Virus record (IMG/VR): IMGVR_UViG_3300017917_004176 | Coordinates: 28,172 to 92,171 of that record | Direction: 5' to 3' (one strand) | DNA from: a virus | Length of the DNA stretch: 64,000 bases | In this document: positions 8,470 to 63,156 of the stretch, piece by piece | Position numbering within the stretch: the first letter of the stretch is position 1 | Layout: each line of letters starts with the position of its first letter | Made by a program: the position numbers and the translations under genes | The notes under the pieces: generated by a model | Told to the model about the DNA's origin: nothing | The model's database searches: none | What the model saw: only the letters and a program-made list of their open reading frames with translations

Positions 8470-9306
8470 ATGAAAAAAATGATTAACAAGACAGTAGTTG
8501 AAGGCGTTTTGCTTGAAAAAGAATTACGCTCTGGTGTGGCAGAAAAATCTGGAGTGAAGTATATTGCAGGCAAATTACATCTTGAAACTGAAGATGGCAA
8601 TACTATTTCAGTAGAGCTTTATGAAGGAGAAAAAACTTCAAAAGGTCTAGAAAATCCTAAGTTTGCTACTTTAAAAAGCATTTATGATAATGCTAAAACA
8701 AAGCATAGTGGTGCAGAAAAACCAACTCTTTTAAAGATTAATTCTGCATTTGGAACAAATGATTGGTATAATAAAGAAGGAGAGCTTGTTTGCTCTTTAG
8801 TAAATAAAGGTGGATATATTAATGTTGTATCTGCTACATCTCCTAAATCTGAATTTGAAGTAGATGTTGTTATTCAATCAGTAGTTCCTGAGATTCGCAA
8901 TGAAGTAGAAACTGGTCGCGCTTACGTTAATGGTTTAATTTTTAACTATGCTAACCAAGCCCTTCCTGCTAAGTTTGTTGTTGATAATCCTAAAGGTGTA
9001 GCTTTCTTTGCTGCTCTGCCAAAAAATACTTTTACTCGCGTTTGGGGAAAACAAGTTAACTCTAGTGTAACTTCTGAGCGCATGGAAGAGTCTGCTTTTG
9101 GCGATGCTAAAGTTGCAAAAACTTCTTATACTCGTAAAGAGTTTGTTATTACTGGTGCACAAGTTGAACCATATGATGACATGCAATTAACTGCAGATGA
9201 ACTTAATACTGCTATTCAAAATCGTAATTTAGCTATGGCAGAATTAAAAAATCGAACAGTATCAAAAGAAACTTCAAAACCAGCTTTTGGTGGATTCTCA
9301 TTCTAA
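8470..9306 (+). CDS. Putative single-stranded DNA-binding protein (tandem OB-like)
   Basis: INKTVVEGVL start, two beta-rich halves, aromatic C-terminal tail, upstream of Sak4-like ATPase. Confidence 0.55.
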   Translation: MKKMINKTVVEGVLLEKELRSGVAEKSGVKYIAGKLHLETEDGNTISVELYEGEKTSKGLENPKFATLKSIYDNAKTKHSGAEKPTLLKINSAFGTNDWYNKEGELVCSLVNKGGYINVVSATSPKSEFEVDVVIQSVVPEIRNEVETGRAYVNGLIFNYANQALPAKFVVDNPKGVAFFAALPKNTFTRVWGKQVNSSVTSERMEESAFGDAKVAKTSYTRKEFVITGAQVEPYDDMQLTADELNTAIQNRNLAMAELKNRTVSKETSKPAFGGFSF

Positions 9307-9402: not shown

Positions 9403-10371
9403 ATGTCAATTTTTGATATTAAGCCGCATCAAGTAAGTCGAGATTTGCGTGGATACTCTGTATTGTTTTATGGAGAACCAAAATCTGGTAAGACTACAAC
9501 AGCTTCTAAGTTTCCAAAGTCGCTCATCATTGCCTTTGAAAAAGGTTATGCTGCACTTCCTGGAGTTAAAGCTGCACCAGTTAATAGCTGGGGAGACTTC
9601 TTAAAGATTCTTCGTGAATTAAAAGATCCACGAGCAAAAGATCTTTATGAAACTATTATCATTGATACTGCCGACATCGCTTATGATTATTGTGAGCAAT
9701 ATGTTTGTAATATGAATGGTGTTGACGCTATCAATAAAATTCCTTTTGGTGGAGGATATTCTCAAGTTTCAAAAGAGTTTGATTCTAAGCTTCGTACAAT
9801 TATTCAACTAGATTTCGGTTTGGTTTTAATTTCACATGCTACTGATAAAACTTTCACTTCTGAAACTGGAGAAGAATACCACAAAATCGTTCCAACTTTA
9901 CCAAATAAGGCTCGCTTAATTGTTGGTCGTATGTCTGATATTATTGGATATTCTCGTGGAGTAGAAACTGCAGAAGGCAATAAAACTATGTTGTTTATGC
10001 GTGGAACTCAACGATTTGAAGCAGGATCCCGCTTCAAGCATACTCCAGATGCTATCGAATTTACTTATCATAATCTAGTAGATGCTATTGCAGATGCTAT
10101 TGATAAGCAAGCTCAAGAAGATGGAGGTCAGTTTGTTGTCGAGTCAAAAGACAACATCTATAAAAAAGTCGATTTAGACTTTGACTTTCTCATGGAATCA
10201 TTTCAAGAAATCGTTAATGACTTACTTGAAAAAGATAAGGCAAAATACTTCCCTCGCATTACAGAAGTTGTGGAGCGCCATTTGGGTAAAGGCAAAAAAG
10301 CCAGTGAAATGACTCGTGATCAAGCCGAACTATTAGATATTATCGTTTATGAATTAAGAGAATTGTTATAA
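9403..10371 (+). CDS. AAA_24/Sak4-like recombination ATPase
   Basis: YGEPKSGKTT Walker A, IIIDT Walker B, LISH. Start reassigned to ATG 9403. Confidence 0.8.
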   Translation: MSIFDIKPHQVSRDLRGYSVLFYGEPKSGKTTTASKFPKSLIIAFEKGYAALPGVKAAPVNSWGDFLKILRELKDPRAKDLYETIIIDTADIAYDYCEQYVCNMNGVDAINKIPFGGGYSQVSKEFDSKLRTIIQLDFGLVLISHATDKTFTSETGEEYHKIVPTLPNKARLIVGRMSDIIGYSRGVETAEGNKTMLFMRGTQRFEAGSRFKHTPDAIEFTYHNLVDAIADAIDKQAQEDGGQFVVESKDNIYKKVDLDFDFLMESFQEIVNDLLEKDKAKYFPRITEVVERHLGKGKKASEMTRDQAELLDIIVYELRELL

Positions 10372-10380
10372 AAATTAATT

Positions 10381-10409
10381 GGGGAGGCTAACAACCTCCC
10401 TTTTATTTT
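10381..10409 (+). terminator. Rho-independent terminator
   Basis: GGGAGG/CCTCCC stem plus T-rich tail. Confidence 0.65.
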
Positions 10410-10423
10410 AGGGTGGTATTGGT

Positions 10424-10924
10424 ATGAGTAGATTAGTAAAATGTTTATATTGCGAAAAAACAATAAATAGACAACAAGAATCTTTTGTTCAAAAGAATTC
10501 TCGATATGCTCATACTCAATGCGACCAAGAGCATAATAGAGAACAATTTGAAAGAGATGGTTTAACTGACTACATTATAAAGCTTTTTGGTGATAGAGTT
10601 AATTTTGGAATGGTTGGCAAACAAATTAAAAACTTTTCTGATGATTATGATTATACTTTATCAGGAATAAAAGGAACTCTTTATTATTGTTATGAAGTAA
10701 AAAAGATGAACATTAATATGGCGCAGGGAATAGGTATCGTTCCATATTATTACAATGAAGCTAAAAACTATTTTGAAAAAGTTGAAAAACAAAGATTAAA
10801 TATTGGTGTTGATTTCACTCCATACAAAAAGAAATCTGTTTATATAAAATCTCCAAGAACATCTGTCCTAAAGCCAGCAGAGTCTTTAGATGATTTGGAA
10901 AGGTGGTTGCTAGAAAATGAGTAA
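10424..10924 (+). CDS. Zn-finger protein upstream of helicase (possible loader)
   Basis: CLYC...HTQC; GIGIVPY; overlaps dnaB start. Confidence 0.6.
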   Translation: MSRLVKCLYCEKTINRQQESFVQKNSRYAHTQCDQEHNREQFERDGLTDYIIKLFGDRVNFGMVGKQIKNFSDDYDYTLSGIKGTLYYCYEVKKMNINMAQGIGIVPYYYNEAKNYFEKVEKQRLNIGVDFTPYKKKSVYIKSPRTSVLKPAESLDDLERWLLENE

Positions 10925-12455
10925 TAACTCATTATATGATACTAAGTCTACTATACAAGTATTAGCAGGATTATACAAAAATCCAAATTTGTTTGATAGA
11001 TACGATAAATATTCTTTGAGCTGGCAAGATTTCAATATTCCTATACATCGAATTATTTTTAATGCTCTTCATAATCTAACTATGCAAGGTGTTAAGAATC
11101 CAGGTGTAGTTGATATAGAAAATTATCTTTTCGCAAGAGCACAAATAAAAGAAATATATGATAAAGAAAATGGGGCGCAATTTCTTCAACATCTCGAGTC
11201 TCTTGCGGACTTGAGTAATTTTGACTATTATTACAACAGAATGAAAAAGTTTTCTTTGCTTGCGTCTTTTTATGATAATGGTATAGATATTTCTACCATT
11301 TATAATAAAGACATTATAGATCCTGCTGTGAAGCGGAAGCAAGAAGATTATATTGATAATTTATCTATTGATGAATTAGTTTCTATAATAAATAATAAAA
11401 TAGAAGAAATTACTAAAAGTTTATTAGGAAGTACGATTTCAGAAACAAAACAAATTGGAGAAGGTCTTTCAGACTTAATTGAAAGCTATAAAATTCAACC
11501 AGAAATCGGGATCCCATTATATGGCCCCCTCATTAATACTATAACTCGAGGTGCTCGATTAAAAAAGTTTTATTTGCGATCCGCTCCAACCGGAGTTGGT
11601 AAAACTCGTATGATGATGGCAGATGTTTGTAACTTTGCAACCGATAAAATTTTTGACTTAACTAAAAATACTTGGGTTGAAAATGGAACATCAGAGCCTT
11701 CTTTGTTTATTACAACAGAGTTAGAAATAGATGAGTGTCAAACAATGGCATTGGCATTCTTAAGTGGAGTGCAAGAGGAAAAGATATTGAATGGCTCATA
11801 TGATTCTTATGAACATAAACGCATAACTCAGGCAGCTAAAGTTTTAGAAAAATCTCCATTGTGGATTGAGCACTTACCAAACTTTTCTTTAAGAGATATT
11901 GAAAGTGTGATACGTAGGCATGTAAGAGAGAATGGTGTTCGATATATAGCATTTGATTATTTGCACACTTCATTAAGAATATTAGAAGAGATTTCTCAAA
12001 AAGCAAAAGGTATAGCTTTACGAGAAGACAATGTTCTTTTTATGATAGCTATTAAAATAAAAGACTTATGTAATGAGCTTGGAGTTTTTATCTTATCTGG
12101 TACGCAATTAAATGCAGACTGGGAGAGTAGAGGAACTTCAAATCAAAACGTACTTCGTGGGGCAAAAGCGATAGCAGATAAAATTGACTTAGGTATTATT
12201 TCTGTACCAGTAACAGATGAAGATCGAGAGTCTTTAAAGAACTTTGTTACAGCCAATGTTTTGCCTATGCCAAATTTAGTTCACCATATCTATAAAAATA
12301 GACGTGGGAAATTTAAATCTGTTAAGCTTTGGTGTAGTGCAGATCTAGGAATTTGCAGAGTAACCCCTTTATTTTTAACTGATGATAATTATAACTTAAT
12401 TGAAATTGAAGACTTGGATATTATTGTTGAGAATGAAATAGACTTGACCAAATAA
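10917..12455 (+). CDS. dnaB: DnaB-like replicative helicase
   Basis: SAPTGVGKT, ITTEL, FDYLH, TQLN, KNRRG motifs. Confidence 0.9.
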   Translation: MSNNSLYDTKSTIQVLAGLYKNPNLFDRYDKYSLSWQDFNIPIHRIIFNALHNLTMQGVKNPGVVDIENYLFARAQIKEIYDKENGAQFLQHLESLADLSNFDYYYNRMKKFSLLASFYDNGIDISTIYNKDIIDPAVKRKQEDYIDNLSIDELVSIINNKIEEITKSLLGSTISETKQIGEGLSDLIESYKIQPEIGIPLYGPLINTITRGARLKKFYLRSAPTGVGKTRMMMADVCNFATDKIFDLTKNTWVENGTSEPSLFITTELEIDECQTMALAFLSGVQEEKILNGSYDSYEHKRITQAAKVLEKSPLWIEHLPNFSLRDIESVIRRHVRENGVRYIAFDYLHTSLRILEEISQKAKGIALREDNVLFMIAIKIKDLCNELGVFILSGTQLNADWESRGTSNQNVLRGAKAIADKIDLGIISVPVTDEDRESLKNFVTANVLPMPNLVHHIYKNRRGKFKSVKLWCSADLGICRVTPLFLTDDNYNLIEIEDLDIIVENEIDLTK

Positions 12456-12487: not shown

Positions 12488-13570
12488 GTGGTTTTTATCT
12501 ACGATAAAGACCTAGTAAAAATAGAATTAAAAACCGAAGAAATCCTTAGAATACTGCAAAAGCTTGGTGCGGCAGAGCCATATACGAAAGATGGAAATAT
12601 TGTTCTTGAAACTATATGTCACAACCCACCAGGCGAAGGCAGTAATAAATTATACTATTATCCAAATACAGGATTATTTAAATGCTATACTCATTGTGGC
12701 GAAAGCTTTGATATTTATGAGTTAATAATAAAAAATAATAAGGCTTCTAATGTTTCAGAAGCAATGAAGTGGATAGATAGAAATATAAAAGGATTTTCTA
12801 TTAATCAAAATGATTCAGAAGAATGGCAAATAACAAAAAGCTATAGAGATTTGTTTTCTATAGAACGAGGATTCAAAGAACAAGATATAATAATTTATGA
12901 TAAAAAAGTTTTGTCTGTCTTGCCCTTCTATATTATTAAAGATTGGCTTGATGAAGGTATCTCTGTTCGAGCTATGCAACAATTTGAAATTAAGTTTAAT
13001 CCAGTAAATAATTCAGTTATTATTCCACACTTTGATATAGATGGAAATCTAATTGGAATTAGACAGCGAACACTAGTAAAAGAAGATGAGATATATGGTA
13101 AATATAAACCTGCCACGATAGATGGTAAAATGTATAATCATCCTTTATCTGTTGCTGCTTACGGCCTAAACTTAAATAAAGATAATATTAAAAAAAGTAA
13201 AATAGCTATTATCTTTGAAGGAGAAAAGTCAGTTCTTCTTTATGAAAGTTATTTTGGCAGAAAGAGAAATATATCTGTTGCTTGTTGTGGATCATCAATT
13301 TCAGAATCTCAAATAGATGAATTGATAAAAGCAGGCGCGGAAGAAATTTGTATTGCTTTTGATAAAGAGTTTCACTTATTGGGTGATTCAGACTATCAAC
13401 TTCAAGTAAAACATTTAAATCATATATTTAACAAGTATAAAGAAAAAGCTTTAATTAGTTTTATATTTGACAAGGAAAATAAGCTTGGTTATAAAGATGC
13501 CCCTATAGATAGAGGTGAAGATACTTTCATTTATCTTTTTAATCAAAGATTTACATTGAAAGAGGAATGA
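12488..13570 (+). CDS. DNA primase (Zn-binding + TOPRIM)
   Basis: CHN...FKCYTHC, IIPH, FEGEKS, AFDKE, KDAP. Confidence 0.85.
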   Translation: MVFIYDKDLVKIELKTEEILRILQKLGAAEPYTKDGNIVLETICHNPPGEGSNKLYYYPNTGLFKCYTHCGESFDIYELIIKNNKASNVSEAMKWIDRNIKGFSINQNDSEEWQITKSYRDLFSIERGFKEQDIIIYDKKVLSVLPFYIIKDWLDEGISVRAMQQFEIKFNPVNNSVIIPHFDIDGNLIGIRQRTLVKEDEIYGKYKPATIDGKMYNHPLSVAAYGLNLNKDNIKKSKIAIIFEGEKSVLLYESYFGRKRNISVACCGSSISESQIDELIKAGAEEICIAFDKEFHLLGDSDYQLQVKHLNHIFNKYKEKALISFIFDKENKLGYKDAPIDRGEDTFIYLFNQRFTLKEE

Positions 13571-55483: not shown

Positions 55484-57013
55484 CTAACCTCCCGACGCTT
55501 CATTGGCCAAAGTTTTATCTGACTTTTGATCATCTGGTAATTCTGGTCGCCCAGCCCCATCCAATGATCCACTTTTTGAAGACATAGTTGACGCCATTTT
55601 AACTGGCTCCATTTTATCTCCTAAATTTAGAATGTCGTTTTCAAATAAAAGTGTCGCCATAAGATTTGCTTGACTTTGACCAAGTGCTAATGCAGGAAGT
55701 ACTTTTGAATACCCCAATGAAGCTTGTTCTTTATAAAGTTTAGCAACTTCATTTCTATTATGTTGAGTTATACGTGGGAACCAACAAGAGAAACGATATT
55801 TTCCATCTATAGGATTAAATCGAATTTCAAGTTGTTTATTTAACCACTCTTGATATTGAAGAATTAAACTCATCATAATTGATTCATCATTAGCAACTGA
55901 TTTTTCTAAAGCCAAGTTTCCTTCTGTGGCAAATAGTTGTTGAGAAACCCCAAGCTCGTTATACAAAGCTTTTTCCCATCGCTCAGAATCTGTAGCATTT
56001 CTATTTCTATCTTCAAGATCTAATAATTGAGAATCTGCAAAAGTAGTTAAAACATCTACATTCATTGCGCGAGCTAGCATACCTACTGCATTATTATGCA
56101 TTGCTTTTGCTTCTTCCATGTCAAAAATAAAATCACCATTTTTATCTAGTGGAATTTTTTGAATCATGATTTTTAGAAGTTGTTGCTCGGCTTTCTTTTT
56201 ACTTACTGCTTGTAGATCATCAAGATCTAATATTTGAGGAATGGCACTTGTAAAAATACCAGTCTCATCATCGTTTAGTCTAAATCTCATTGTGTAATTT
56301 GGATCTAGTTTAACCCAAACACCAAGGTCTTTAGATGTTATTCTTTTGTCATTTCCTTCTTTATATTGAAGATATGCATCAATAATTTCTGCAGGCATTG
56401 ATTTTAAAACATTCATTCTGATTTCTGGATTTGAATACATAATGTCAAAAAAGAATAGATTAAATTCAATAACAGGCAGTCCGTTTATTTTATAAATACT
56501 TCGACAATAATCTGGTGGCAATTCTTGAATCATAGTGTTATTACCACTTTGTCTTAAGTATCCATAAAAAACGCCATCAACTAAAACACGAGTTGAAATT
56601 TCACCAAGTCTAGATTTTAAATTTAAAGACTCTAAAAATTTTAATGCTCGAGAAAAATCAGAAAGCAATCTTTCTTTACGAACATCATCTGAGTCAATGT
56701 ATGGAGTTAATAAATAATCATAGCTTGGTAGGTTTGCCATATATCTAACTACACGACTATAAATACCACTCGCAGAAAAAAAGTGTCGGCTTATAGCACG
56801 AATACTTCTTATTTCTCTCAATTCTATTGCACGAACAATTTGTCGCTTAGCAAATATAGTACGACCCATTGCACGATAGTTTCCTATGTCGGCTGAATTT
56901 TCTGAGATATTTAATCCGCCGTTTCGTTGATAGGCATAGTTTAATTCTCTAGTACTAAGCTCTGTTAGTCTATCTCGTTGTTGAAAATTAGAATTAACAT
57001 TTCGCTTCTTAAT
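55484..57013 (-). CDS. Portal protein
   Basis: About 510 aa between terminase and protease; QELPPDYCRS, ELGVSQQLF. Start uncertain (ATT 57013 vs TTG 57055). Confidence 0.8.
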   Translation of the reverse strand: MKKRNVNSNFQQRDRLTELSTRELNYAYQRNGGLNISENSADIGNYRAMGRTIFAKRQIVRAIELREIRSIRAISRHFFSASGIYSRVVRYMANLPSYDYLLTPYIDSDDVRKERLLSDFSRALKFLESLNLKSRLGEISTRVLVDGVFYGYLRQSGNNTMIQELPPDYCRSIYKINGLPVIEFNLFFFDIMYSNPEIRMNVLKSMPAEIIDAYLQYKEGNDKRITSKDLGVWVKLDPNYTMRFRLNDDETGIFTSAIPQILDLDDLQAVSKKKAEQQLLKIMIQKIPLDKNGDFIFDMEEAKAMHNNAVGMLARAMNVDVLTTFADSQLLDLEDRNRNATDSERWEKALYNELGVSQQLFATEGNLALEKSVANDESIMMSLILQYQEWLNKQLEIRFNPIDGKYRFSCWFPRITQHNRNEVAKLYKEQASLGYSKVLPALALGQSQANLMATLLFENDILNLGDKMEPVKMASTMSSKSGSLDGAGRPELPDDQKSDKTLANEASGG

Positions 57014-57074
57014 AACGAACACCTCCTCTAGTATACTTATAATTAGACAGGTCAAAATTGTATAATTTTAACCA

Positions 57075-57470
57075 CTATATTCCAGCTTTTTGAAATATAT
57101 ATTCTAAATCGAATAAATCATAATCATAGTATGGAATTATTACCAATGGAATTCCTTTGCGTGCACAATATCTTAATTTTAAATTATCATTATATTTTTG
57201 TTGTGCCAGCTTTTTTCCGCCGCCATAAGCATTAATAGAAGTATAGTGCTGTTCACCATTATACTCTATTAAAAAATCTAGCTCACCATCATCATCAAAA
57301 ACCGCAAAGTCAAAACGCAATGGCTTACCAGAAGATGAGACAAGATCAGGAAATTCATATTGTTGCTCGAAAATTAATCCTGAGTTTTGTAAAATTTCCT
57401 TGACCTTTATTTCGCCTCGTGACATTGGGGCCTTAAAAGCTCCTTGGGTGCTGCTTGTTCCCTCCGTCAT
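57075..57470 (-). CDS. PD-(D/E)XK / Vsr-like endonuclease
   Basis: SRGE, LRFDF, IEYNGEQHY, DNLKLRYC, IPYY. Confidence 0.75.
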   Translation of the reverse strand: MTEGTSSTQGAFKAPMSRGEIKVKEILQNSGLIFEQQYEFPDLVSSSGKPLRFDFAVFDDDGELDFLIEYNGEQHYTSINAYGGGKKLAQQKYNDNLKLRYCARKGIPLVIIPYYDYDLFDLEYIFQKAGI

Positions 57471-57635: not shown

Positions 57636-59366
57636 CTATGAATAAAACATAAAATCGGAGGCTCTGTATTTGCCCCTCTTTTTCTTTTCAGAATCCTCAA
57701 GTATTTTTATATAATATAGACCATATTCAAAGGCTGAAAATTTATCTTTTGGAATTTTATTGTTTGCTTTTTCTAAGACCACGTTTTTGCCATCGCGTTT
57801 TTCGCGTAGGTTCATCATCTCTTCTTTAAGAATCGAGGTTAGAACAAAAGGTCTTAAATAATCTTGGCGTGCCTCGGGAGTCATATCTTGGCCCACTCGG
57901 GTCGCCATTAATTTTGCTTTTGCATTTCGCTCATCTATTAAGAATTTAATTTTACCCGAGCTTATTTGCGTTACAACATTAACATGAGCCTCATTGTTTA
58001 TTTCGGCATTTGCTTTAATTAAGTATAAAACATTTTGCTCAACTTTACCTTCTTTTTGATAGCGTCGATAATTTCCATTATCGTCGTTAATAACACCAAG
58101 CGCCGCATATTCTTCATTTGTTTTTTTGTCAGTATTTGGCATAATCAAGTAGTCTACTAATCCCGCTCCAAGACCATTAGCGTCTATAGCTATTGCCTTT
58201 GGAAGATATTTATAATAAAGTTTTTTAATAAAAATAGATTGAACTTCAAAATGTTCGTTCTCGATAGTAAATACATTTACTAAAGATTTTAAAGCTATTC
58301 CTTGTGGTTGTGGATTTACTTTAAAAACCATTACAACCGACTGAGCGCCTTGACGCCCAACGTCTATACCAAAAATATAATAGTGGCTTGTATTTCCTCG
58401 GCCACTCCATTCTTCTTCGGCTTGATTGAGAACTCGATATTTATCAAATTGGTCTGCGCTAAAGAATGCATCGTCCATCGAGCCAGACCATAAGCTTTCA
58501 TATTCTCGGCCGAATGAAGCTTCGTTAAAAGTTCCATCTTGACGCATATCTGATACGAAGCCTTTATCTAGTAGACTATGACGCACAGGGATTCTCCAAG
58601 TACCTCCAAATACAAATGCCTGGCCTGGCCTCATTATCTGCCAGAGCAAAAGCTGTAATTGTTTCTGATAGGCAAATGAATCTCGAAAGCCCGCAGTAGT
58701 TACATAAATTTGAGATTTATTTAAAGTCTCATTTGGATCGACCTCACCATTAGCGGCTCGTCTCGAGATATTCATCAGTGGTAAAATAACTGTGTTGAGC
58801 TTTTCGCCATCTACAAGAATAACTTCCTCGATTAGTCCCCCGTGCCTACGACCTCCACGAGTAGATTCACGCACAGCTACGATATCAAGTCGCGACCCAT
58901 TTTTAAATTGGAGGCGCACATAGTCTTTCGTAAACTGGGTCTTACCAGGGCGCCAGTCTATTTCTTTATTGAGCGCCGGAAATATATCGAGCAACTCTTC
59001 TATCTTTTCTTTTGCGATATTTGCAGCCTGCTCTTTACCACCAGACGCGATAAATAATCTTGCGCCTGGATAAAGTATTGCGCGAATGACCAAAACCAAA
59101 ACTGAAAGAAAGGATTTTGAGAAAGCACGAGTAAAAGTTGCATAAACATATTTATATCTCATTGCTACTCGCAAAAACATTCTTTGATAAAAGAATAGTC
59201 TAAAAGTAGATGAAGCGGGAGTTATCATATCTACAAAGATATCTGGGTACTCGCGCCAAAATGAAATCCATTTTTTAAACTCTGGTATTTGAGCGCGTAC
59301 TCGTTCTTCGGATAGCCCGACTTTTTTCTTTGGTTCTAATTTCTGTAAAATATCACTTAGTGCCAT
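57636..59366 (-). CDS. Terminase large subunit
   Basis: Deviant Walker A TRAFSKSF, RGGRRHGGLIEE, YVTTAG, GIDVGR, IDANGLG, KDKFSA. Confidence 0.9.
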   Translation of the reverse strand: MALSDILQKLEPKKKVGLSEERVRAQIPEFKKWISFWREYPDIFVDMITPASSTFRLFFYQRMFLRVAMRYKYVYATFTRAFSKSFLSVLVLVIRAILYPGARLFIASGGKEQAANIAKEKIEELLDIFPALNKEIDWRPGKTQFTKDYVRLQFKNGSRLDIVAVRESTRGGRRHGGLIEEVILVDGEKLNTVILPLMNISRRAANGEVDPNETLNKSQIYVTTAGFRDSFAYQKQLQLLLWQIMRPGQAFVFGGTWRIPVRHSLLDKGFVSDMRQDGTFNEASFGREYESLWSGSMDDAFFSADQFDKYRVLNQAEEEWSGRGNTSHYYIFGIDVGRQGAQSVVMVFKVNPQPQGIALKSLVNVFTIENEHFEVQSIFIKKLYYKYLPKAIAIDANGLGAGLVDYLIMPNTDKKTNEEYAALGVINDDNGNYRRYQKEGKVEQNVLYLIKANAEINNEAHVNVVTQISSGKIKFLIDERNAKAKLMATRVGQDMTPEARQDYLRPFVLTSILKEEMMNLREKRDGKNVVLEKANNKIPKDKFSAFEYGLYYIKILEDSEKKKRGKYRASDFMFYS

Positions 59367-60417
59367 CGACCTCATCCTCTCCTCTTAATTCAGAGTACTC
59401 GGTCCAGTCATCGTCAGTTAGTTCTTCTTCATAGGTTTCAGATTCTCGTTCCATTTCTATTTGCATTTGTTTAATAGCTGAATCTATTAGAGTTCCAAGA
59501 TTAAGTTCAGTTTTAACTAAGCGCTCAACATATTGTGAAATGTCTTTTATGGTGAGATCAACTATATCTTGATCTTCTTCTCTATGGTATCTAGGAATAA
59601 AACCCTCTTCTTCACAAAGACGGACCATTTCTCCAATTGAATCAATAAAGTCTTCACTTTCTGCTTTGTTTTGCGCTGCTGTAAATTTAGCAGAACGCAT
59701 CAAACTGTCATAACTTTTACTCAATTTACTAAAACCCTCAATGTCGCCTATGTCGATAGCTTGATTCATCTTGAGCGATGTTTTACAAATCATTTTTAAA
59801 TAGTCTTCGTGCGAGGCAGTTTGAATATCATAGCTTTCATGCATCTGATTATAAAACTGCTCGAGGATTAACCATTCTTCTTCTTTATAAAGCTTGCCCC
59901 ATTTGAGTGTAAGCATTTCTTTTTCTTCTCGACTTAACATTGAACCAAAGTCAAATATATGCTTCATATCCAGACTGCTTTGTTCTTCTGCTTGTTCTTC
60001 TGAAGCGCCTTCTGATATTAAAGCCTTCTTGTATCTATTTTGATGATCTTCTTCCATTTGCTTTAATCGACGCAGTTTTTCGTTATATTCTTCAATAATA
60101 CGATCAGTATCATCCCAGACGTATTGTGAGAACTGTTTAAGCTTCATTTTGGCCAAATAACGGCCGATAATAGTAGTGCCTTTAAGAGTACCAGGGTCAT
60201 TACCATAACGCTCTACGAGGGCTTCCCATTCTTCTGGGATGAATGGCACATCAACTTCTTGCAAAATATGATAAACAGTTGATGGTTCGTGTGGGTTTAT
60301 ATGCATGGTTAAACATTTTTTGCAAGTAATCATTAGCTGACCACTTTTATCTTGGTAAAAGTTTTCTGCTCGCATGTCGCGTTTACATTTCACGCAACTA
60401 TGTAAATCTTCTCTCAT
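59353..60417 (-). CDS. Zn-finger protein upstream of terL (possible small terminase)
   Basis: CVKC...CKKC, helical C-terminus; overlaps terL start. Confidence 0.55.
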   Translation of the reverse strand: MREDLHSCVKCKRDMRAENFYQDKSGQLMITCKKCLTMHINPHEPSTVYHILQEVDVPFIPEEWEALVERYGNDPGTLKGTTIIGRYLAKMKLKQFSQYVWDDTDRIIEEYNEKLRRLKQMEEDHQNRYKKALISEGASEEQAEEQSSLDMKHIFDFGSMLSREEKEMLTLKWGKLYKEEEWLILEQFYNQMHESYDIQTASHEDYLKMICKTSLKMNQAIDIGDIEGFSKLSKSYDSLMRSAKFTAAQNKAESEDFIDSIGEMVRLCEEEGFIPRYHREEDQDIVDLTIKDISQYVERLVKTELNLGTLIDSAIKQMQIEMERESETYEEELTDDDWTEYSELRGEDEVDGTK

Positions 60418-60428
60418 CTGCGCACCTC

Positions 60429-61424
60429 CTATTTATTTCGGCATTCTTTGCAAATAGAGTAGAAGCCATATTGTGCTGTCTTGTTAGTTGTAAAATATCT
60501 TGTATGAGCTAATTTAGTTTGACCACAGCGAGAACATGTTTTATAATTACCTTTCATCTTGTAAGTGTAAACCCAATTGAGCCAATCTTCTTTAAAACCA
60601 TCTGCGATTAAATATGGAATTTTGTTGCACCACAGCGAAGATATATATTCGTGACTATGGCGTCGCCCATACTTATCTTCTATCTCTTGCTGAATCTGAT
60701 TGTTTGTGTAGCCATCAGCTTTCATTACTAATAAATCGTAGTAAAGAGGATATTGATCTTTGATGTATTTATCAATAATGTTTTCTAGGTCAATTAAGGC
60801 CCAGCGCATATCTTCATTAAGCTTGTCCCAGAAGTGTTGTTTCAATTTTGAATAATTATTTAAAATTTGAAATACATGCTTAGGGTCATCGAAGCGAAGA
60901 TCGGATAGGGTGTCGTCATTTTTTTGTATACCAAGCTTGGCCGATGATGATGGGTATACAGGTTGGCGATAAAGGTTTCGCAGAGTATATTGTTCTTTGC
61001 GCATTTCAATAATCATTTTCTTTAGACGATATTTTTGTGCACCGTGCGCATCTTGTAGCAATCCCTCTAGTCGTTCAATGTTGTGACGCAAAGCTCCGAG
61101 ATCAGGAACTTCATTTAAGTCTTTTGTTGAGATAGATGTTTTATGCGTTAGAATCATATTTTTATCTGAGCGCATTAAGTTATGAAGTGAATCTTCTCCA
61201 CCTTCTAATTTTTCACTGAGGCCTTGGTAGCTTGTTTCGCGTTTATTGATAGTGACCATTCGGTTTTCAGTTAAGATGTCATTTTCATGTTTTTCAATAG
61301 CATAGATAAGATAGTTGGCGAGTTTTTCAAGTTCGCGCGGGGTCCAGTCGTCTTTTTGGGCGATGAGGGCCTCTACTATTTGTTTACGCTCTTGAGGGTC
61401 TTTTATAGTATAATCGAGCTTCAT
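60429..61424 (-). CDS. HTH + Zn-finger protein (possible transcription regulator)
   Basis: GYTNNQIQQEI...HEYISSLW HTH-like segment; CSRC...CKEC. Confidence 0.55.
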   Translation of the reverse strand: MKLDYTIKDPQERKQIVEALIAQKDDWTPRELEKLANYLIYAIEKHENDILTENRMVTINKRETSYQGLSEKLEGGEDSLHNLMRSDKNMILTHKTSISTKDLNEVPDLGALRHNIERLEGLLQDAHGAQKYRLKKMIIEMRKEQYTLRNLYRQPVYPSSSAKLGIQKNDDTLSDLRFDDPKHVFQILNNYSKLKQHFWDKLNEDMRWALIDLENIIDKYIKDQYPLYYDLLVMKADGYTNNQIQQEIEDKYGRRHSHEYISSLWCNKIPYLIADGFKEDWLNWVYTYKMKGNYKTCSRCGQTKLAHTRYFTTNKTAQYGFYSICKECRNK

Positions 61425-61445
61425 GTGCAGCCTCCTTCATAATTT

Positions 61446-61474
61446 ATTATAACATATTTCTCGGCGTTTGTCAA
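61446..61474 (-). promoter_or_regulatory. Sigma-A consensus promoter
   Basis: TTGACA-17-TATAAT with TG on minus strand. Confidence 0.85.
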
Positions 61475-61674
61475 GAGGGAAGTGAAAATTAGTTGGGGCG
61501 TCGAAGTTAGTGTGATACTTTGTATTTTTTAAAAATCCTGCGTTACAATCCCGAAACATACCCCCCGCCAATATCTATGATACACTATCCCCCTATTCCG
61601 AATAAACTGTGCTATTATATATTATTATAATAACTAGTAGATTAGACATAAGAAATAGCACTTACTTCGGAAAC

Positions 61675-61753
61675 ACTAAGATATAATAGCTCATACTAAG
61701 ATATAATAGGCGCTGCTTTGGCAGACACTAAGATATAATCGCTCGCACTAAGA
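61675..61753. repeat. Phased direct repeats ACTAAGATATAAT (iteron-like)
   Basis: Copies at 61675, 61695, 61727 and partial at 61747. Confidence 0.85.
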
Positions 61754-61808
61754 AAACTTATAAGCTATGCAAAAGAATAAGAAAATATATAAGACATAAA
61801 AGACAGTT

Positions 61809-61837
61809 CCCGCTCCCGCTCCCGAGTTCCCGCTCCC
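61809..61837 (-). repeat. GGGAGC repeats, G-quadruplex-type tract
   Basis: Five CCC runs on + strand at 61809, 61815, 61821, 61829, 61835; shorter copy at 62185-62198. Confidence 0.7.
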
Positions 61838-61875
61838 TGTGTTGTGAAGATATTATGTTTGGTGTTCGCGCTGCC

Positions 61876-62431
61876 CTTCGCTATTCGTCAAATGAGCTGT
61901 ACGCTCATTTGCTCTAGCTCGGACTCTTTCGTCGCTTTCGCTTATAAAGATTGTCTGTCGACAACTTTATAGCTCTATCTCCTCAATCGTGCGTTCGCTC
62001 GTTAGGTAAATGAGATTGATTGCCATCAACTCATTAACTAACTCGCTCTCTTTCCTCATTCGCTAGGTAAATGAGATTGATTGTCATCAACTCATTAACT
62101 AGCTCATTCGTTTGCAGCGCTCATATACGCTTCCTCGCACAAATAAGTCTCGTTATCACGTCGCTTAATTGTGCTCGGGCTGTTCCCGCTCCCGCTCCGC
62201 AAAAGCCTCGCGTTAATAAGTCTCGCTATCGCGTCGCTTAATAACGCTCGTTCGCTCACTCGGCAAATGAGACTGCCTGCTCATTTGCTCGTTCGCTGGT
62301 GCGCTCGAAGTAAATAAGTCTCGTTGTCACTTCGCTTAATTACTTCTCGCTCTGCGTTCGTGTTAATAAGTCTCGTTATCACTTCGCTTAATAACACTCA
62401 CTTGACCTTTTGCTTCGCGGTCGAAGGTCAA
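61876..62431 (-). repeat. Array of about 10 imperfect hairpins in three families
   Basis: Inverted repeats at 61889-911, 61940-973, 62001-042, 62062-103, 62137-174, 62210-247, 62263-288, 62307-346, 62360-397, 62402-431. Confidence 0.9.
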
Positions 62432-62806
62432 AAGCAAAAGACTAAAAGCATAAGGTCAAAAGCATCTAAACCCTTTTTTAAAACCTTTAAAACCTTTAAA
62501 GGAAAGCGCTCCGCGCCCTCCATTTTTGTCCCTCCATGTATGGACGCGTCGGAAACCTTTTGGCAATTTTTGGAAAAAATAAGCGCCAAAAAAAAGATCA
62601 AAAATACGAACACGCGTTCCCATAATTTTTTTTTGGTAATTTTTGGAAAAAACGGCGCGCAAGGGGCGCGAATTTCACACGCGAACACGCGTTCGCATAA
62701 CCTATTCAATTTTTTGACGGGGTTATGTGGTATTATTTATTCATAGGATAGCAAGACAAGGCAAGGCGTAACCCTATCAAAAAAACGGATAGGTTAAAAC
62801 TTTTAC

Positions 62807-62835
62807 TTGCAAATTGTCAAATTATCCTATACAAT
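62807..62835 (+). promoter_or_regulatory. Early promoter
   Basis: TTGCAA-17-TACAAT; same form at 63193-63221. Confidence 0.7.
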
Positions 62836-62874
62836 AAGAGTATAAAATAAAACAAAAAAAAGGGGTTATGAAAA

Positions 62875-63156
62875 ATGTTTAAGACAATTCTACTCAATGA
62901 TGAAATGATAGAAAAAAGTTACATTTCATTGGGTCGCGAGTTTAAGCAACAAATTGTAAATGATGAAAAACACGCGCTGAATATAGCGCGCAAGTTAGCA
63001 AGTAAAGGCTTGGAATACAAAAAAAGTCTTAATTTTTCAAGTGGTATATACTATGTATACTTTACAAATTATACCCTAGTACTTATACCACGGCGCGTAA
63101 AATTGGCAGTATATGGAAATCTGCTAAGCGCTGATATAAAATGGAAAAACGCATAA
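62875..63156 (+). CDS. Small hypothetical early protein
   Basis: 93 aa; conserved leader AAAAAGGGGTTATGAAAAATG. Confidence 0.7.
   Translation: MFKTILLNDEMIEKSYISLGREFKQQIVNDEKHALNIARKLASKGLEYKKSLNFSSGIYYVYFTNYTLVLIPRRVKLAVYGNLLSADIKWKNA

Follow-up and report, generated by a model that had tools for sequence, protein, structure and literature searches.

A strand-biased array of covarying hairpins at the transcription divergence point of a large phage contig: a candidate folded DNA element

The window analysed here, the final 64 kb of a 92,171-bp IMG/VR viral contig from a gut phage, contains at positions 61876-62431 an array of nine to ten imperfect hairpins belonging to three related families, identified by direct reading of the sequence, with a repeat finder and in four folds. 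The arms of the hairpins covary, and motifs in their unpaired parts are confined to the minus strand (14:0 to 18:0, depending on the word counted). Together, the covariation and the motif bias give good support to the original prediction that structure is selected on one strand. The array lies at the only point of the contig from which transcription diverges, and we tentatively interpret it, at somewhat less than even confidence, as a folded single-strand DNA element of a replication origin, serving for priming or helicase loading.

Organization and covariation of the hairpins

All hairpins are described as they read on the minus strand. The leftmost, A1 (61872-61928), has the stem CAAATGAGC/GCTCATTTG, extended outward by GA/GA steps (GCTA/TAGC, GTCC/GGGC). 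It is followed at 61934-61941 by the linker word GCGAAAGC, identical to the DNA mini-hairpin of the phage G4 primase origin, and by the three hairpins of family B: B1 (61940-61977), with an outer stem, a bulged T, the inner stem TTGTC/GACAA, a GACA loop and GA flanks; B2 (61999-62044), with a GGCA loop and, past the stem, a GA/GA step and then GC/GC; and B3 (62060-62105), with a GACA loop and a base in which GA/GA and AT/AT steps alternate. Two members of family C come next, C1 (62133-62178; outer stem GCACAA/TTGTGC, loop GATA) and C2 (62206-62251; outer stem GCGTTA/TAACGC, apical part GCGATAGC). Hairpin A2 (62257-62292; stem GCAAATGAG/CTCATTTGC) separates these from C3 (62304-62349; outer stem GAAGTAA/TTACTTC, loop GACA) and C4 (62356-62401; outer stem GTGTTA/TAACAC, loop GATA). 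The array ends in an additional hairpin (62402-62459), within a terminal inverted repeat (62402-62464) whose 14-nt arms are 93% complementary and which overlaps two direct copies of AAGGTCAAAAGCA. The original prediction of about ten hairpins is thus borne out, in number and position, by the sequence, the repeat finder and the folds. The 24-nt core of family C occurs exactly four times in the window, against an expectation of 0.00.

The array folds far better than shuffled sequences, with z values for the two strands of -8.4 and -7.1 as RNA and of -7.8 and -6.7 as DNA; none of 100 shuffles folded as well. In nearest-neighbour models both strands fold equally well, the energy models used being blind to the stability of GA pairs and mini-hairpins. 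This equality in energy, together with the recurrence of the stem AATGAG/CTCATT in five hairpins, speaks for a duplex or cruciform platform for proteins (operators, a partition site or nucleoprotein packaging of the region). The original prediction had itself held that equal folding of both strands, coupled with a lack of conservation, would reduce the array to operator palindromes in duplex DNA; such equality is indeed seen in energy terms, but the asymmetry of the motifs (see below) argues against palindromes of that kind. Furthermore, the arms of AATGAG/CTCATT lie 5 to 15 nt apart and therefore do not make up a duplex site of fixed spacing.

To assess covariation, we aligned the minus-strand sequences of the four C copies and counted the pairs of the structure first proposed for them. 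Both partners had changed in eight of the 15 pairs, and a single partner in none; 96.7% of the cells were paired, and this result was not equalled in any of 500 shuffles. A shift of the partner by 1-3 columns lowered pairing to 27-45%. The outer stems of family C therefore vary while staying paired around four copies of the same core, as had been proposed, and the compensatory changes noted past the GA flanks (CC/GG, C/G, GC/GC, GT/AC) are part of this covariation. In family B, comparison of B1 with B2 and B3 revealed double changes in 4 of 9 pairs, no one-sided change and 100% pairing; between B2 and B3, GTTAG/CTAAC becomes GCTAG/CTAGC. Every covarying pair passes from one Watson-Crick pair to another, and a single G-T pair was seen in the stems. 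The scarcity of G-U covariation that had been put forward as a mark of DNA is thus present, among paralogues within one genome. Indeed, since the array was found in no relative examined (see below), the covariation evidence as a whole comes from paralogues of one genome only.

Variable, covarying arms around a constant, asymmetric core, as seen in family C, are the opposite of a palindrome that binds a dimer. Because, in addition, the motifs are one-stranded (14-18 unpaired copies on one strand and 0 on the other), duplex palindromes for dimeric proteins fit the array poorly. Conserved symmetric half-sites at fixed spacing, equal on both strands, were looked for in the array and not found. Relatives do carry arrays of short palindromes near the corresponding gene (CTAAC-N4-GTTAG in one, AATAACANNTGTTATT in another; see below), a point in favor of the protein platform; on balance, we consider such a platform unlikely.

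The repeat finder also showed that families A and B have in common the AATGAG/CTCATT stem and an upstream linker, CGTTCGCTC. Hence, of the three families originally proposed, the groups of hairpins stand, but A and B are not independent of each other, and the array grew through duplications in place, after which the copies diverged within the limits set by pairing. Growth of this type, along with the restriction of the array to one lineage and its recent gain relative to relatives, could be reconciled with a locally expanded family of selfish palindromes, or with a decoy or trigger for hairpin-sensing defence or repair (Lamassu/DdmABC-type, SbcCD-type). There is no sign of mobility, however: the rest of the 92-kb contig and every collection scanned are free of copies. 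No defence-related gene adjoins the array. Moreover, 12 pairs have had time to change on both sides with pairing preserved, a sign of function more than of a recent selfish expansion. Either explanation is highly improbable.

Strand bias and structural motifs

In the 556 nt of the array, AGCGA is found 14 times on the minus strand and 0 times on the plus strand; the corresponding ratios are 18:0 for GCGA and 15:0 for CGAG, with 0.3-0.9 occurrences expected for the words counted. These words are irregularly spaced and are therefore not helically phased duplex sites. When the hairpin arms were aligned with a scoring scheme blind to mismatch type, 39 of 51 mismatches proved to be purine-purine on the minus strand. 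Among the eight 2x2 internal loops with Watson-Crick pairs on either side, seven read 5'-GA/5'-GA on this strand, mostly in a C-GA-G context. All seven loops of families B and C are of the GNNA type (GATA three times, GACA three times, GGCA once), and a T-T mismatch is retained in all four C copies. The tandem G-A pairs, the loop sequences and the conserved T-T mismatch of the original prediction are all recovered in this way. On the plus strand the counterparts are C/T mismatches, TNNC loops and C-runs, for which we know of no structural role.

Several known elements were considered in light of these motifs. The GA/GA steps are symmetric 2x2 loops and come without the 3-nt bulge that a kink-turn requires, as judged from the alignments; a kink-turn was accordingly rejected. 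Hammerhead or other ribozymes, integron attC sites, CRISPR-like repeats, type III antitoxin repeats and hairpin telomeres were likewise dismissed once the sequence had been inspected.

Tandem GA pairs and GNNA-like loops occur in RNA as well as in DNA. Covariation and strand bias would fit a transcript equally well, and the leftward late genes share the polarity of the purine and G bias, which would thus also suit a minus-sense transcript. A structured non-coding RNA of approximately 0.6 kb, of minus or plus sense, is thus a possibility to be reckoned with, albeit a doubtful one. The loops of the array carry a pyrimidine at position 3, hence they are not GNRA, nor are they UNCG; this, and the near absence of G-U pairs, speaks against RNA. 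For a plus-sense RNA, the conserved features would amount to UC/UC mismatches, UNNC loops and C-runs, again without a structural role known to us.

DNA mini-hairpins offer closer matches. The oligonucleotide d(GCGAAAGC) melts at 76.5 C, as compared with 39 C for r(GCGAAAGC), while d(GCGATAGC) and d(GCGACAGC) have Tm values of 71 C and 72 C, respectively (mini-hairpin DNA review, 2026; PMC13037366). Compact DNA mini-hairpins resist coating by SSB and mark primase start sites at single-strand origins; G4, St-1 and alpha3 have them where primase starts, and they also occur in RSF1010 ssiA and in N4 promoters (PMC13037366). In the array, GCGATAGC lies at 62225-62232 of the minus strand, where it forms the tip of hairpin C2 and matches a DNA mini-hairpin of measured stability. 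The loop type, the mini-hairpin matches, the near-absent G-T pairs, the promoter layout and the origin-like neighbours (for the last two, see below) lend indirect support to a preference for DNA over RNA. The original view that the element probably acts as single-stranded DNA is favored by the loops, the Tm values, the scarcity of G-T pairs and the lack of an inward promoter; it stands with the reservation that RNA keeps the place given to it above.

The intergenic hub and its genomic surroundings

The array is contained in an ORF-free region of 1.45 kb (61425-62874; here referred to as the hub), with leftward genes on one side and rightward genes on the other. ORFs overlapping the hub had no family match. 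Because genes run leftward from 61.4 kb and rightward from 62,875, where small rightward genes resume, the hub is the sole point of transcription divergence in the contig. The minimum of the cumulative GC skew coincides with the hub, the skew being confounded here with gene orientation. The leftward genes, from 61.4 kb down to 24.3 kb, include those for a sigma-like factor (phrog_5767; 60429-61424, minus strand), terminase (57636-59375), an HNH nuclease, portal (55484-57055), head and tail. Rightward genes between window position 1 and 24.3 kb encode a DnaB-like helicase (10917-12455), a primase (12488-13570), a PolIII-type polymerase and proteins of nucleotide metabolism. The array was thus correctly placed between the packaging operon and the early cassettes in the original prediction. 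No initiator gene was recognised beside the hub among the proteins scanned.

The portal, sigma-like and packaging-operon proteins show 24-48% identity to proteins of large siphoviruses, the distant relatives being Enterococcus phages EF1/VRE9, Phass-1, Brevibacillus phage Sundance, the Lactococcus 949 group and SPbeta-like phages. At E<=1e-10, 4,921 homologues of the sigma-like protein were counted; most of the contigs carrying it fell into bins of Bacillota MAGs, the sources being rumen, caecum and rabbit gut. Its C-terminus contains an invariant four-cysteine motif (C297, C300, C325, C328). The HNH/homing-endonuclease-like ORF (131 aa; 57075-57470, minus strand) lies between terminase and portal; in Enterococcus phage VRE9_3, homing endonucleases interrupt the terminase region. 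Eight tRNA genes (Asn, Met, Ser, Lys, Thr, Trp, Glu, Ile) are found on the plus strand outside the window, at contig positions 11084-12282 (locus L085).

Facing away from the array on its left is a sigma-A-type promoter with a perfect TTGACA-17-TATAAT sequence and a TG element (61446-61474, minus strand), which drives the sigma-like gene; relatives have the same type of promoter ahead of this gene. Next come an AT-rich tract (61596-61660), recognised by direct reading, and three 14-bp iterons, (C/T)ACTAAGATATAAT, on the plus strand at 61674-61739. The iterons start at 61674, 61694 and 61726 (spacing of 20 and 32 bp) and are exact or near-exact copies of a word unique in the 92-kb contig; iteron-like repeats were found in no other gap of the window. 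They contain TAAGATATAAT, which closely resembles an extended -10 element. Between iterons and array, at 61809-61837, the minus strand carries five G3 runs with 3-5 nt loops, a tract of the G-quadruplex type on the strand that is the purine-rich side of the hairpins; a shorter copy of the G-runs is present at 62182-62198, and throughout the hub G-runs fall on the minus strand. On its right, the hub contains a tandem duplication of approximately 73 bp (62558-62700), each copy with a GAACACGCGTTC-type palindrome, and, within the duplication, a terminator-like hairpin of the minus strand (62656-62670). The first rightward early promoter, TTGCAA-17-TACAAT (62807-62835, plus strand), again faces away from the array. 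A possible small unit occupies 62650-62760 of the minus strand: it comprises a weak promoter, TTGTCT-16-AATAAT (62759-62732), a CATAACC...GGTTATG hairpin and a GAACGCGTGTTC palindrome, and at 62670-62650 it has the strong terminator-like hairpin of the duplication, T-run included.

The promoter standard of the phage itself is TTGACx-17-TGnTATAAT, and the internal late promoters resemble the host sigma-A consensus despite the phage's own sigma-like factor. A consensus scan, which would miss phage-specific promoters, found no promoter of the phage's own type reading into the array on either strand. This layout bears on the RNA alternative. Neither strand offers a sigma-A-type promoter with a -35 box directed into the array; the terminator-like site at 62670-62656 would stop minus-sense transcription coming from the right, and no terminator follows the array. 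A minus-sense RNA might serve as a purine-rich protein sponge, as a cis-acting antitermination or leader element of the 37-kb late operon, or as an RNA II-like preprimer whose G-rich end would form an R-loop at the iteron/AT-rich site. A plus-sense RNA might start at the -10-like iterons, in the manner of the PE1-T transcript of phage c2; the likeness of TAAGATATAAT to an extended -10 element is in keeping with this option. Also in favor of RNA, hairpin arrays in phage gaps often are RNAs, and the c2-type origin yields a non-coding transcript at the same genomic position (PMC7150918).

The position of the array, upstream of an operon with the sigma-like factor, terminase, HNH nuclease and portal genes and 1.6 kb from the contig end, could also suggest a packaging or genome-end signal: a pac or cos site for terminase, a T5-like injection stop, or protection of the end from host exonuclease. 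Contig ends within 600 bp of the sigma-like gene were noted in relatives 17 times upstream and 3 times downstream (loci L004-L084 and L239-L315), an imbalance that might be held in favor of such a signal; it points to a hypervariable or repeat-rich boundary upstream of this gene across the family. One relative (L051) begins with tandem repeats of about 40 bp. The word AGCGA is oriented to the putative left end and presumably resembles the short GCG-containing Chi sites of Bacillota. Against an end signal, the near-complete relatives do not terminate at the sigma gene, no terminal repeat was found in the contig, and neither pac nor Chi accounts for covarying hairpins. Furthermore, the head and tail of the contig share rightward early cassettes and motifs, so that the break looks like an assembly break in repeats and not like a physical end. 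An end signal is accordingly a decidedly improbable explanation. Contig positions 1-300 share TTCCAAAAA/TTTTTGGAA-type words with the right side of the hub (window 62558-62830), and the leader 'aaccctatcaaaaaa...ataggttaaaa' is common to both; the break probably falls inside repeated early-gene cassettes. From the CheckV completeness estimate (60%), approximately 40% of the genome may be missing, in which case a second origin could exist elsewhere. This estimate may be too low: the sigma proteins of the two closest relatives are 97% and 92% identical to the one described here, and since their contigs measure 88 and 84 kb, the true genome may be near 95 kb.

Search for similar arrays

Rfam 15 gave no match at gathering score in the whole window. 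Within 61300-63000 the best E-values were 0.27-8.5, each with a score below half of the family's gathering score, so that the RNA alternative finds no Rfam counterpart even at E<=10; in the first 18.6 kb of the contig, outside the window, Rfam reported the eight tRNAs only. A BLASTN search of the hub against 50,697 phage records produced no match. Pattern scans showed the exact family C core to be absent from the viral, metagenome and genome contig collections; a looser inner-core pattern returned single matches of the kind expected by chance and no locus with two or more. A covariance model of family C recovered the window's own copies only.

Homologous intergenic regions, which the original prediction had looked to for conservation, were compared in the neighbourhoods of the sigma-like gene at 80 viral loci and 77 MAG loci. 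The expected homologues did not turn up: none of these approximately 150 loci has a hairpin array upstream of the gene. The gap at this position in relatives is mostly 150-260 bp, and longer gaps contain small ORFs. An equivalent array is absent from the whole sequences of all four near-complete relatives, and nothing comparable to the strand-biased GCGA/CGAG clusters was found in approximately 3 Mb of related DNA. One cluster, at locus L231, was rejected as a similar array on the grounds of being a plain tandem repeat. Literature searches brought up no account of an array like the one seen here. The array is therefore known from one lineage only, and its strand-specific architecture is unusual.

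Other repeats occupy comparable places in two relatives. A 150-kb relative, G002 (L097), contains at least 10 CTAAC-N4-GTTAG palindromes and repeated TAGTCA words in non-coding DNA at 8740-8960 and 10360-10480, 1.5-3.5 kb upstream of the sigma-like gene. In phage VRE9_3, AATAACANNTGTTATT and TGTGAAATATTTCACA palindromes are found in a 1.8-kb gap at the equivalent place. Both are arrays of short symmetric sites of the duplex-binding kind. As relatives have different repeat hubs nearby, the hub would appear to be a fast-evolving control region in which the hairpin array is specific to one lineage.

Comparison with known elements and possible mode of action

The closest functional parallels are the complementary-strand origins of G4, St-1 and alpha3 and the ssiA and ssiB signals of RSF1010, whose hairpins are active in one strand only and as single-stranded DNA; the design of the array is one-stranded as well. 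G4 and ssi signals contain SSB-resistant mini-hairpins of the GCGNNAGC or GNA type, and the array contains the exact G4 word. More generally, GCGNNAGC or GCGNAGC mini-hairpins set in strand-specific hairpins, the hallmark of ssi-type signals, are represented on its minus strand by GCGAAAGC and GCGATAGC. The known elements consist of one to three hairpins in single-stranded DNA phages or plasmids, whereas the array numbers about ten in a double-stranded DNA phage of about 92-150 kb. It also differs in its systematic tandem GA steps and has no sequence homology to them; priming by the array is put forward as a proposal.

In lactococcal c2-type phages (Ceduovirus), the late and early blocks diverge from a structured non-coding stretch that serves as the origin; the first early promoters delimit it, and phages that are otherwise alike have origins unrelated in sequence (PMC7150918). 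The hub at 61425-62874 is likewise non-coding and placed between divergent gene blocks. The c2 origin needs the defined promoter PE1 and a transcript. For transcription of the array in the early direction the hub has, by contrast, just the -10-like iterons, which lack a -35 box, and the strand bearing the conserved features is antisense to early transcription. The early promoters of phage N4 are strand-specific DNA mini-hairpins extruded with the help of negative supercoiling and SSB (PMC13037366). The array resembles them in having strand-specific hairpins of the mini-hairpin type near early genes. However, the N4 promoters, which a virion RNA polymerase uses, combine stems of 5-7 bp with loops of 3 nt, whereas the hairpins of the array have long interrupted stems and 4-7-nt loops; an N4-type hairpin promoter was rejected on account of loop size and stems, and no N4-type virion RNA polymerase was found among the proteins scanned. 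The divergence point recalls iteron origins in having three 14-bp direct repeats alongside an AT-rich tract. Classical iteron origins differ in that here there are only three iterons, no initiator gene was recognised alongside, and the hairpin array has no counterpart in them. The iss region of T5 is non-coding DNA rich in repeats and palindromes near early genes. The likeness to it is one of description, the hub being devoid of evidence for a terminal repeat or two-step DNA transfer.

On these grounds, the array may be a cis-acting DNA element of a replication and control hub that works when the minus strand is single-stranded. According to the twin-domain model, promoters firing apart drive negative supercoiling into the DNA between them. 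Applied to the hub, the two outward promoters would load it with negative supercoils, and the duplex could be opened by this supercoiling, by an initiator acting at the iterons and AT-rich tract, or by the first replication fork. The three iterons and the AT-rich tract would then represent the initiator-binding and melting site. Once exposed, the purine-rich minus strand would fold into about ten SSB-resistant hairpins and a G-quadruplex, the hairpins being held by GNNA loops of the mini-hairpin type and by C-GA-G tandem G-A pairs, next to the G-run tract; the plus strand, with its C/T mismatches, would fold less well. We infer that the active form is DNA, that the hairpins are extruded and that their function is in priming. 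Because compact hairpins resist SSB and mark primase starts in G4, St-1, alpha3 and ssiA, we propose for the array the role of clustered signals for single-strand initiation, from which the phage primase and DnaB-like helicase would start. An origin element without relatives is plausible, given that c2-type origins differ in sequence between close relatives (PMC7150918).

A more specific possibility, which we regard as rather doubtful, is a strand-specific 'GA-zipper' in which some ten mini-hairpin-capped stems and the G-quadruplex tract would be extruded between the divergent promoters and would recruit the phage replisome, or keep the origin open, without a transcript. If correct, this would be an origin architecture undescribed for tailed phages, and a natural, selected form of non-B DNA built from tandem G-A pairs.

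The wider meaning of the array depends on the nature of its active form. Should it be RNA, it would be a new orphan structured RNA with an unusual design of repeated GA steps. Should it be folded DNA, as we tentatively favor, it would rank among the clearest instances, at the sequence level, of a double-stranded DNA virus in which a non-B DNA structure has been selected, given its covariation free of G-T pairs, its purine mismatches and loops that match the most stable DNA mini-hairpins known. Large phages of the SPbeta/Schiekvirus-like type are abundant in herbivore and human guts, and we know of no origin described for them. Folded DNA at the hub would extend to these phages the single-strand-origin logic of G4, of the RSF1010 ssi signals and of the N4 promoters.
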